Sequence record: OL451225.1
Source of the DNA: Escherichia phage P896
DNA: 64,000 bases
Direction: 5' to 3' (one strand)
Shown here: one piece after another, positions 29,835 through 36,705 of the stretch
How the letters are laid out: each line of letters begins with the position of its first letter
Numbering within the stretch: the stretch's first letter is position 1
The notes under the pieces: generated by a model
The model's input: only the letters and a program-made list of their open reading frames with translations
Database searches by the model: none
What the model was told of the DNA's origin: nothing
Position numbers and translations under genes: made by a program

Positions 29835-30020
29835 TTATTCTGTAATACTTTCCAGATAATTTTCTAAATCGTCTGAAGCCTTATTAAGGGCTTCTAGCGC
29901 TTTATAATAGTCTTCACGGGAGTAATATTCTGTATGAAGTTCTTCGTCGTATTCGCTTTTAGCATCAACAACAGTTTCAATCATATCCAGAATTTTATTT
30001 TTCTGTTCTTTAGTAATCAT
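29835..30020 (-). CDS. hypothetical acidic protein, 61 aa
   Basis: ORF track. Confidence 0.4.
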   Translation of the reverse strand: MITKEQKNKILDMIETVVDAKSEYDEELHTEYYSREDYYKALEALNKASDDLENYLESITE

Positions 30021-30028
30021 AATATACC

Positions 30029-30214
30029 TTAAAGAGTATTCACATAAGCAATTAATTCGTTTTCTTTCTCATCAAACCGATTAGCAAATTCTTCCAGATG
30101 TTCGGCATCTATCGGGCCGTATTCATCATAAAAGGCGTTTGCTTCTGTATGCTCATCCAAAAGCTCATGGATAAGCTCAAATAATCTACTTTTCTGACTA
30201 ATGCTTAAACTCAT
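30029..30214 (-). CDS. hypothetical acidic protein, 61 aa
   Basis: ORF track. Confidence 0.4.
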   Translation of the reverse strand: MSLSISQKSRLFELIHELLDEHTEANAFYDEYGPIDAEHLEEFANRFDEKENELIAYVNTL

Positions 30215-30438
30215 TTCGGTTCCCCATATCGTACAAATTTAGGATGTTCGCAATCACCAGAATGAAAACCTTCACCCTTATGATTAGAACATCCTTTATT
30301 AGAACAGTACCACCAGTAATCATATTCGCAATTCATTTCATCGTTGCATAAAGCTGCGATTACTGGCCATTCACATTTTTCACATTTGGCCGTTTTAAGA
30401 ATTCGGGCTTGGCTCATAACCATTGCACCTTTAAGCAA
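30211..30438 (-). CDS. Cys-rich small protein, 75 aa
   Basis: ORF track; about ten Cys including CxxC pairs. Confidence 0.45.
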   Translation of the reverse strand: MLKGAMVMSQARILKTAKCEKCEWPVIAALCNDEMNCEYDYWWYCSNKGCSNHKGEGFHSGDCEHPKFVRYGEPK

Positions 30439-30626
30439 TATTCTTCTACGTGCTGTTTACGTTTATTTTTATCTATAAAAGTATATTCAACATATTCACC
30501 GATATACCATTTATCAGTGTTGTGCTGACTTTTTATAGGACATTTGGTTACTCGAGTTTCGGTCCAGCGTCGAATAATTTCCGCTTTGTTTTTAGGGTCA
30601 AACGGATGTGGGTAATGTGCTTTCAT
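30414..30626 (-). CDS. hypothetical protein, 70 aa
   Basis: ORF track. Confidence 0.4.
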   Translation of the reverse strand: MKAHYPHPFDPKNKAEIIRRWTETRVTKCPIKSQHNTDKWYIGEYVEYTFIDKNKRKQHVEEYCLKVQWL

Positions 30627-31077
30627 AATCCACCACTATTAAATCAATGTCAGGAGTAAACATATCAATTAATTGAGATACCTTATCCCAATCACCACCA
30701 GCAATACCACAACCAATACGAGGAATATAAATTACCGGTTTAAACAAAAGGGTTTCTGCTTGTAGATTTAATTCTATCATACAATTTACTAAAGCGCCAT
30801 AATCAAGATTAGGGCCTGGCTCGTATTGCGTATACAAGTTATAGCACATGCCAAAACCTGTCGGCTTATGTTTAAAAACAATAGACATATCGCCTAATTT
30901 ATCGCGAGAACCATATTCAGTAGTGGTTTTATCTATTTCTAAAACTTTTGGATAAGCCTTCGCCAACTGTCCAGCTACGCCAGAACCCATTGTGTGAAAG
31001 CAGTTACAACCATGTGCAATAATATTGCCTTGAAGAAAGAGGGCGACGATATCGCCCTTAATATACTGGGTAATCAT
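30598..31077 (-). CDS. macro-domain protein (ADP-ribose binding or processing), 159 aa
   Basis: GDIVALFLQGNIIAHGCNCFHTMGSGVAGQLAKA and later IPRIGCGIAGGDW match the two glycine-rich ADP-ribose-binding loops of macro domains. Confidence 0.65.
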   Translation of the reverse strand: MITQYIKGDIVALFLQGNIIAHGCNCFHTMGSGVAGQLAKAYPKVLEIDKTTTEYGSRDKLGDMSIVFKHKPTGFGMCYNLYTQYEPGPNLDYGALVNCMIELNLQAETLLFKPVIYIPRIGCGIAGGDWDKVSQLIDMFTPDIDLIVVDYESTLPTSV

Positions 31078-31433
31078 TTAGAGTTCAATCCTCTATTATA
31101 TGAATCCACTAACCTGTCAACCATACTGGTGCAGGCCGCCTTATATTTTGCACTTGACAGAATGCAATCCATTTCAAATAATTTCTTTTCATATTTGTTG
31201 GATAATACATTCTTTTTCAAAAGCGTATGTTCAACATCATTTTGACCATCTTTATAGGCTGCGGTGAGCTTGGCACTGAACCGGATTACACAATCCACAT
31301 TGCTTGATGCGCAATAATCTTTAGCCGTCCTCGTTGCATATTCTACGATGCTGTTGTTGTCGTCGCTCTGTACTGAAGCTATTCCTCCCGTGCTGAATAC
31401 TAACCCTATGGCTAAAGTGATAACTCTTACCAT
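31074..31433 (-). CDS. secreted protein, 119 aa (signal peptide)
   Basis: N-terminal MVRVITLAIGLVFSTGGIASVQS signal peptide; four Cys. Confidence 0.5.
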   Translation of the reverse strand: MVRVITLAIGLVFSTGGIASVQSDDNNSIVEYATRTAKDYCASSNVDCVIRFSAKLTAAYKDGQNDVEHTLLKKNVLSNKYEKKLFEMDCILSSAKYKAACTSMVDRLVDSYNRGLNSK

Positions 31434-31435
31434 TT

Positions 31436-31978
31436 TTAATCCACCGTTTTTAATAGGCCTCGTGATTTTAAGTAGTTAGCTTTTTCTAGGACCTGTGAAG
31501 CATACTTATTACCAGCTTTCACATTCCACCCTGCGTTATATGATGATAGTGTTTTCCTTATATCCCCCTTATGAATATTTAACCAATATGAAAGCTCAAT
31601 ATAAGCCCAGCGTGCACTGTTCTCTCTCTTGCTTATCATCTTGATTATTTCTTTATCTGTCATTGTCCACCCAACCTGTTTCACGCGTTCGCGCACGGTT
31701 GGAAGATAATTTTGGAATATACCATATGCATGATGCTTATCTTTATTTAATCCAGTATTAACCCCAGCAGAACTTTCCTGCCAGGTTAAACCAGCCATGA
31801 TATATCCCAAACCATTATGTTGGTGCGGATTTTCTTTGTACTTGCCATTTTTCTGGAACTGTTCTCCAAACGCATAAGCATATTGGAGGTTCTCCATTTG
31901 TTCATTACTGAAAGTAGGCTCTACGCTATGGGCAGACATACTAACTGTCAATAGTAAGGTGGCGATTACTTTTTTCAT
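31436..31978 (-). CDS. exported SLT-like lytic transglycosylase, 180 aa
   Basis: Signal peptide then WQESSAG...AYGIFQ (catalytic Glu-Ser plus GLMQ-like motif); at the position of T4 vs.1, next to regB. Confidence 0.5.
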   Translation of the reverse strand: MKKVIATLLLTVSMSAHSVEPTFSNEQMENLQYAYAFGEQFQKNGKYKENPHQHNGLGYIMAGLTWQESSAGVNTGLNKDKHHAYGIFQNYLPTVRERVKQVGWTMTDKEIIKMISKRENSARWAYIELSYWLNIHKGDIRKTLSSYNAGWNVKAGNKYASQVLEKANYLKSRGLLKTVD

Positions 31979-36252: not shown

Positions 36253-36705
36253 TTATCCGAAAATTTGAGTCATTACCTTGTACATCGATTTACCCATCAC
36301 GTATTGCCATTGGCTCGGTTTAATCAGAGCAAATGCATCAAACTCTGGGACTGTACTGCCATCCGGAAAGGTATGATAGGCAGAGCATTTACTGTGTCTG
36401 AATTGTTCATGCTCGACAGGAACCGTATACAAAAACAGGTGAAGGTTTTTGTTATCTGAATAACGGAACTCACCGAGGTCTTTTAAGAATGCCGGGTCGT
36501 ATTGGGTAAACCCAGTTTCTTCTTCGGTTTCACGAATAGCCGCTTCAATTGGGGATTCATCAGCTTCAACATGACCCTTAGGGATGTCCCATTTGTGTGC
36601 AGGCATACCTGGTTTACGAGAACCGGTCACACGACCCATGAATAACTCTTTATCTTCGGTCATGAAAATAATGCCAGCAGATAATTCCTTCACTTTCTTA
36701 CTCAT
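36253..36705 (-). CDS. nudE: Nudix hydrolase NudE
   Basis: ORF 36253..36780 begins on GTG; trimmed to ATG at 36705 gives 150 aa, close to the recalled T4 NudE length; Nudix box GHVEADESPIEAAIRETEEETG. Confidence 0.75.
   Translation of the reverse strand: MSKKVKELSAGIIFMTEDKELFMGRVTGSRKPGMPAHKWDIPKGHVEADESPIEAAIRETEEETGFTQYDPAFLKDLGEFRYSDNKNLHLFLYTVPVEHEQFRHSKCSAYHTFPDGSTVPEFDAFALIKPSQWQYVMGKSMYKVMTQIFG

Follow-up and report, generated by a model that had tools for sequence, protein, structure and literature searches.

P896 Tk.4, a stand-alone macrodomain protein orthologous to T4 AdfM, most likely strips a defence toxin's ADP-ribose marks off phage DNA

DarTG systems halt phages by ADP-ribosylating phage DNA. 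Does the macrodomain protein encoded between tk.3 and vs in Escherichia phage P896 reverse such a defence, as was originally predicted, and by what chemistry would it do so? We analysed a window of 64,000 nt of P896 (OL451225.1), the whole stretch of DNA to which all positions refer. The gene, tk.4 (adfM), is a minus-strand ORF of 159 codons that runs from ATG to TGA (Table 1), and the plus strand of the same interval (30598..31077) has stop codons throughout. The source is an SP18-like (Gaprivervirus) T4-type phage: its Tk.4 and that of SP18 are 100% identical, and the 4 kb around the gene is 98% identical to SP18 and relatives. The neighbours are the thymidine kinase gene, small tk.x genes, tk.3 (a DUF7202 gene according to Pfam, downstream at 30414..30626), vs (valyl-tRNA-synthetase modifier), vs.1 and RegB. 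The gene order in the tk.3/tk.4/vs slot is that of T4 and is common to T4, RB5, SP18, RB69 and JS10. In the T4 record the slot gene is tk.4, labelled 'phosphatase; contains A1pp phosphatase motif', and the two proteins are 57% identical over their full length without gaps (E=1e-69). By orthology and synteny, the P896 gene is the orthologue of T4 tk.4 (adfM).

Table 1. Positions of tk.4, its parts and nudE in the P896 window
Feature	Position	Strand	Basis
tk.4 / adfM CDS, 159-aa stand-alone macrodomain protein	30598..31077	-	
tk.4 translation start region: GAGG Shine-Dalgarno (31093..31090) and ATG (31077..31075)	31074..31093	-	Sequence reading
Overlap of tk.4 3' end with tk.3 start, 29 nt	30598..30626	-	ORF table
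Loop 1 of the ADP-ribose pocket, H22-G36, HGCNCFHTMGSGVAG	30970..31014	-	68-homologue conservation; hmmalign to SCO6735, DarG and TARG1
Q84 codon	30826..30828	-	Invariance in family; profile alignment; hmmalign table
Loop 2 (phosphate-binding), P119-W130, PRIGCGIAGGDW	30688..30723	-	Invariant P119, G122, G124 and W130
Candidate terminator-like hairpin, GC-rich (stem of 8 pairs, loop of 3 nt, U-rich tail), codons 7-13 of tk.4	31040..31058	-	Scan
nudE, Nudix hydrolase (context only)	36253..36705	-	Pfam NUDIX; T4 NudE orthologue

The gene is tightly packed. Its ATG and the stop codon of vs share the sequence ATGA (31077..31074), with the GAGG 12 nt upstream, a layout also kept in T4, RB5 and SP18, and the overlap with tk.3 is annotated likewise in SP18 and RB5. 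A sigma-70 consensus scan gave 28 sites against 29 expected, with nothing specific to tk.4, and the MotA-box middle-promoter pattern occurred at 10 sites against 5.4 expected, none of them close to tk.4; the 'early' status of the gene thus comes from synteny alone. Inside the 5' end of the ORF lies a candidate terminator-like hairpin, which is kept in seven of eight homologues from five genera, is labelled 'terminator' in Ec_Makalu_003, and uses minority codons in its stem (joint p ~0.004). This conserved hairpin is beyond the literature searched. Compensatory covariation was sought in the hairpin and not found, so its terminator-like role stays putative.

Several observations concern the surrounding genes. 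At 29835..30020 (minus strand) there is an extra 61-aa tk.1/tk.2-like ORF that is missing in SP18, beside a second 61-aa ORF (30029..30214), and the sole gap in a blastn comparison with SP18 covers P896 29838..30027. Between the tk.2-like genes and tk.3 lies a 75-aa 'Phage zinc binding domain' (PF23895) gene (30211..30438, minus strand); T4 has no gene at this position and SP18 has an ORF there. The vs.1 homologue (31436..31978, minus strand, 180 aa) has no Pfam match, falls in PHROG 600 ('unknown function'), is labelled as an SLT-domain protein in one phage record and has an N-terminal hydrophobic segment resembling a signal peptide. As for the other neighbour, vs, no T4 gene is depleted more strongly in minimal medium (bioRxiv 10.1101/2025.11.20.689424).

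The assignment of the protein to the macro domain withstood both refuting conditions named in the original prediction, an incompatible fold and a loss of the binding-loop residues. Tk.4 matched Pfam PF01661 with 33.2 bits against a gathering score of 22 (E=5.4e-8), over profile positions 2-117 of 118. In the structural analysis, whose input omitted the T4 row, P896 Tk.4 had three layers (alpha/beta/alpha) built around a central mixed beta-sheet, which is a macrodomain fold, and its closest structural neighbours were of the ALC1-like (TARG1-DarG-Poa1p) class rather than the MacroD, PARG or viral macro types. Both peptide motifs quoted in the original prediction are present exactly in the translation, and they belong to the two glycine-rich ADP-ribose-binding loops. 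On alignment the binding-loop residues are kept across 68 homologues (down to 38% identity), in which G31, G33, G122 and G124 show no or almost no variation, and in which H22, G23, N25, C26, G33, A35, Q84, P119, G122, G124 and W130 are invariant. The loop glycines fall on the loops of DarG, TARG1 and SCO6735 that contact the ligand. For these comparisons, distant homologues were aligned by HMMER profile (hmmalign), as MAFFT put the catalytic strand one or two columns off, and PDB alignments supplied the sequences of SCO6735 and DarG, which were then aligned to the Tk.4 family profile.

Homologues of Tk.4 occur in 2,751 of 50,697 phage records, under labels that vary from macro domain protein and phosphatase to Poa1p-like and hypothetical. 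Shortened Tk.4 proteins of 120-130 aa (58-82% query coverage) are recorded for Shigella SHFML-11/26, Citrobacter CkP1 and Klebsiella vB_Kpn_AM_K2; these entries could be truncations or start-codon miscalls.

What such a protein does in a T4-type phage has been addressed genetically with the T4 orthologue. A HIDEN-SEQ preprint of November 2025 screened T4 transposon mutants on a host that expressed DarTG2, with tk.4 as the single significant match, and a clean tk.4 knockout, in work confined to genetics, makes T4 DarTG2-sensitive, for which reason the gene was renamed adfM (anti-DarT factor Macrodomain) (bioRxiv 10.1101/2025.11.20.689424). Its authors noted a structural similarity of Tk.4 to Mtb DarG and proposed enzymatic removal of ADP-ribose from DNA for T4 AdfM (bioRxiv 10.1101/2025.11.20.689424). 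The result closes a gap left by the earlier finding that T4 minus adfA and adfN stays DarTG2-resistant (PMC11825919). The literature that could be searched yielded no biochemical work on a Tk.4 of the T4 family. The reversal of ADP-ribosylation-based host defence that had been suggested for the P896 protein agrees with these genetics; since T4 tk.4 is the published adfM, the main idea is supported, yet already known. The P896 finding is thus real, and concerns a catalogued T4-family gene with the function of its orthologue already in a preprint.

The P896 protein most likely strips a defence toxin's ADP-ribose marks off phage DNA. In our favoured reading, with a probability of roughly 0.7, P896 Tk.4 is a stand-alone ADP-ribosylglycohydrolase, an 'orphan antitoxin' that carries out dT-ADPr repair against DarTG2. 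We infer from the T4 work that the P896 allele has the same target as the T4 allele and acts catalytically on DNA. Tk.4 would be made from a gene block in early/middle orientation. In a DarTG2-carrying host, infection would free the DarT2 toxin, which would block replication by placing ADP-ribose on thymidine of single-stranded phage DNA. The phage macrodomain would hold the ADP-ribose in the pocket formed by both loops and hydrolyse the thymine-ribose bond, giving back normal DNA and releasing free ADP-ribose.

To understand which chemistry such a reaction might follow, we compared the pocket with those of known macrodomains. Q84 aligns with the catalytic lysine of TARG1 (K84) and DarG (K80 in TaqDarG) and with the essential Gln85 of SCO6735. 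This position is Gln in P896 Tk.4, T4 Tk.4, BT1257 and SCO6735, and Lys in TARG1, both DarGs and, via alignment to DarG, PhiKZ AdfM. In loop 1, H22 and N25 are the equivalents of SCO6735 H24 and N27; H22 is common to SCO6735, BT1257 and TARG1 and replaced by Asn in DarG, and N25 is common to all compared macrodomains except TARG1. Loop 2 is near-identical to that of SCO6735 (LPRIGCGLAGGTW), with G122 and G124 equivalent to its G126 and G128. The Gln, Asn and His of the SCO6735 type and its two loop glycines all have counterparts in Tk.4. The human enzyme TARG1/OARD1, on the other hand, uses a K84/D125 catalytic dyad, to which Q84 and A126 correspond in the profile alignment (hmmalign). SCO6735 (Streptomyces coelicolor, PDB 5e3b) and BT1257 (Bacteroides, 2afc/2fg1) are cellular, non-phage proteins with an overall identity to Tk.4 of ~28-30%.

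SCO6735 itself cleaves thymidine-linked ADP-ribose off DNA; its Q85A mutant is dead on both DNA and protein substrates, its N27S mutant is nearly inactive, and its authors proposed a water-mediated mechanism in which the Gln positions the distal ribose (PMC9411070). The T-ADPr activity has been confirmed with synthetic substrates. Judged by alignment, the T4-family AdfM active site is thus of the SCO6735 Gln type (H22, N25 and invariant Q84) and differs from the Lys type found in TARG1, DarG and PhiKZ AdfM, an assignment beyond the literature searched. As Q84, N25 and H22 are shared with a T-ADPr hydrolase, SCO6735-type, lysine-independent T-ADPr hydrolysis is the best-supported mechanism: Q84, held by N25, is predicted to position the distal ribose for water attack, with no covalent lysyl intermediate, unlike TARG1 or DarG. 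This mechanism carries a caveat: the DNA-positioning lysines of SCO6735, K34 and K89, correspond in hmmalign to Ser32 and Gly88 of P896 Tk.4, and the DNA-positioning lysine K29 of TaqDarG is likewise absent. The first of these lysines is, however, also replaced, by Ala, in PhiKZ AdfM, an enzyme with T-ADPr activity.

DarG was the best match in the PADLOC and NCBIfam libraries, over its macrodomain half only. Against NF048014, the DarG equivalog, the 159-aa protein scored 28.2 bits, far below the 250-bit cut-off, and covered profile positions 3-141 of 338. An identity as DarG was rejected, as, besides the low score, the protein lacks the C-terminal domain and the catalytic Lys and its gene has no darT beside it; DarG structures (PDB 5m3i, 5m31 and 7omu) have Lys80 together with Asn at position 22, where P896 Tk.4 has Gln84 and His22. 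No darT or ART-like gene was found near tk.4, the neighbours being vs and tk.3. P896 Tk.4 would therefore work like the DarG macrodomain but is not DarG. A plasmid search for bona fide DarG returned stand-alone or SLOG-fused macrodomains only. Among the plasmids, CP057073.1 (E. coli, 137 kb, non-mobilizable, possibly a phage-plasmid) carries a stand-alone Tk.4 homologue with 41% identity, and Bacillus thuringiensis plasmids of ~235 kb carry a homologous macrodomain under genes labelled 'SLOG family protein'.

The absence of DarG's C-terminal DarT-binding domain also bears on whether the protein mainly binds and inhibits DarT2 instead of hydrolysing its product. The small phage proteins AdfA and AdfB do work by binding DarT (PMC11825919), and dead SCO6735 Q85A inhibits DarT strongly in vitro (PMC9411070). 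The catalytic-core residues of Tk.4 are, however, strictly conserved across the family, which argues for selection on enzymatic activity, and we regard non-catalytic neutralisation as highly improbable.

A phage protein that resembles Tk.4 in being a stand-alone macrodomain directed against DarTG2, and that bears the same name, is PhiKZ gp104 (AdfM), which has been shown biochemically to remove DarT2 marks from oligonucleotides (Cell Rep 2026, PMC13309987). The PhiKZ protein is a late product that enters the phage nucleus by import (PMC13309987). It represents a separate lineage, being of the Lys type (N23/K78) and DarG-like, with a DarG match of 1e-24 compared with 8e-5 for P896 Tk.4. Kinship between the two was rejected, since their pairwise similarity amounts to 23 bits. 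The proteins are barely alignable and the PhiKZ protein is DarG-like, so macrodomains have been taken up by phages as DarTG2 countermeasures on at least two occasions and from separate branches. The name AdfM has been given independently to two only remotely related macrodomains, the Gln-type Tk.4 of T4 and the Lys-type gp104 of PhiKZ.

The structural comparison leaves some room for other substrates. Poa1p of yeast, a phosphatase whose structures include mutants of H23 and S30, is an equally close structural neighbour with the HxCNC motif in common, and a comparative study favoured soluble substrates for phage macrodomains in general. Tk.4 could accordingly be a hydrolase of soluble ADP-ribose derivatives, acting as an ADP-ribose-1''-phosphate phosphatase, deacetylating O-acetyl-ADP-ribose or degrading immune signals derived from ADPr. 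Against this, database names, including the legacy 'A1pp phosphatase', were transferred by homology, and the phenotype of the T4 knockout concerns DarTG2 specifically, which is a system that modifies DNA. The substrate of Poa1p has no known source in T4 infection, and to our knowledge the T4 RNA-repair pathway does not produce Appr>p. We consider a soluble substrate very unlikely, and the degradation of ADP-ribose-derived signals, the second possibility raised in the original prediction, gained no support here.

A role as a protein de-ADP-ribosylase has similarly little to recommend it. T4-type phages encode ADP-ribosyltransferases, and Tk.4 might reverse or tune the marks set by phage Alt, ModA or ModB or by a host transferase. 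The residue that Alt and Mod modify is arginine, though, and we know of no TARG1-class macrodomain that cleaves ADP-ribosylated arginine. TARG1 and SCO6735 do remove ADPr from proteins too (SCO6735: PMC9411070), but no growth phenotype of T4 tk.4 has been reported without DarTG2. The chance that proteins are the target therefore seems very slim.

The idea that a Nudix hydrolase nearby provides a second ADP-ribose-processing candidate stood in part. The nudE product is 64% identical to T4 NudE, which according to the T4 record is active on FAD, ApnA, ADP-ribose and NADH, and so the annotation as ADP-ribose-active fits. The two genes are separated by ~5 kb of conserved T4 backbone with more than 10 genes between them. 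Both proteins deal with ADP-ribose chemistry, and Macro and Nudix domains in general occur together in DNA viruses, as described in a comparative study; apart from this, we found no functional link between NudE and Tk.4. NudE could in principle consume the ADP-ribose product of the macrodomain.

Next, we asked how far the T4 result extends to the P896 allele. P896 carries the SP18/RB5-type allele, and the DarTG2-tested allele is of the T4 type only. Between T4 and RB5, both members of Tequatrovirus, tk, tk.3, vs, vs.1 and regB are 93-100% identical, but tk.4 is only 58% identical. RB5 tk.4 in turn shares 93% identity with P896 tk.4, although the RB5 flanking genes are only 49-76% identical to those of P896. 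Sliding-window DNA identity (P896 versus T4, RB5 and SP18) placed both breakpoints at ORF boundaries, at ~31077 and ~30615. Alike flanks, a divergent tk.4 and breakpoints at the ORF edges point to precise cassette exchange between genera. The gene thus exists as two ~57%-identical alleles (T4/T2-type and SP18/RB5-type) that behave as an exact-ORF cassette swapped between phage genera, a pattern that is beyond the literature searched.

The two alleles share the slot, the length class, an identical loop 1 and the same H22/N25/Q84 core. They differ in the gene body, in a 4-residue C-terminal extension and in loop 2, which reads GCGIAGGDW in P896 and GAGIGKGNW in T4, the P896 version being closer to the family consensus and to SCO6735. 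That the alleles are functionally distinct counter-defence cassettes, differing in specificity (for example towards DarT2 clades or other nucleic-acid ADP-ribosyltransferases), is a rather unlikely reading. In a related reading, the SP18/RB5-type allele would use the same fold to counter a different ADP-ribosylating system, be it a divergent DarT2 clade or another nucleic-acid ADP-ribosyltransferase. Different targets would account for the alleles being maintained and exchanged, and the swap at the ORF edges between flanks that stay nearly identical, the unlike loop 2 and the restriction of the DarTG2 genetics to the T4-type allele are consistent with them. However, the two alleles have loop 1 and every invariant catalytic-core residue in common, and the closeness of the P896 allele to the consensus and to SCO6735 would make it, if anything, the more canonical dT-ADPr hydrolase. 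We therefore hold a different target to be unlikely, and dT-ADPr repair against DarTG2 remains our preferred reading for P896 Tk.4.

If the alleles did differ in specificity, T4-like phages would trade tk.4 alleles across genera by precise gene replacement in an arms race, and the P896 allele would be a specificity variant with a lysine-independent, Gln-based mechanism. A site of the Gln type is predicted to differ from one of the Lys type in its chemistry and in how sensitive it is to inhibitors or mutations. T4-like phages have layered countermeasures, with AdfA and AdfN against DarTG1 and Tk.4/AdfM against DarTG2. As the P896 ORF is adfM, SP18-like phages should plate on DarTG2 hosts, an expectation relevant to the choice of therapeutic phages.
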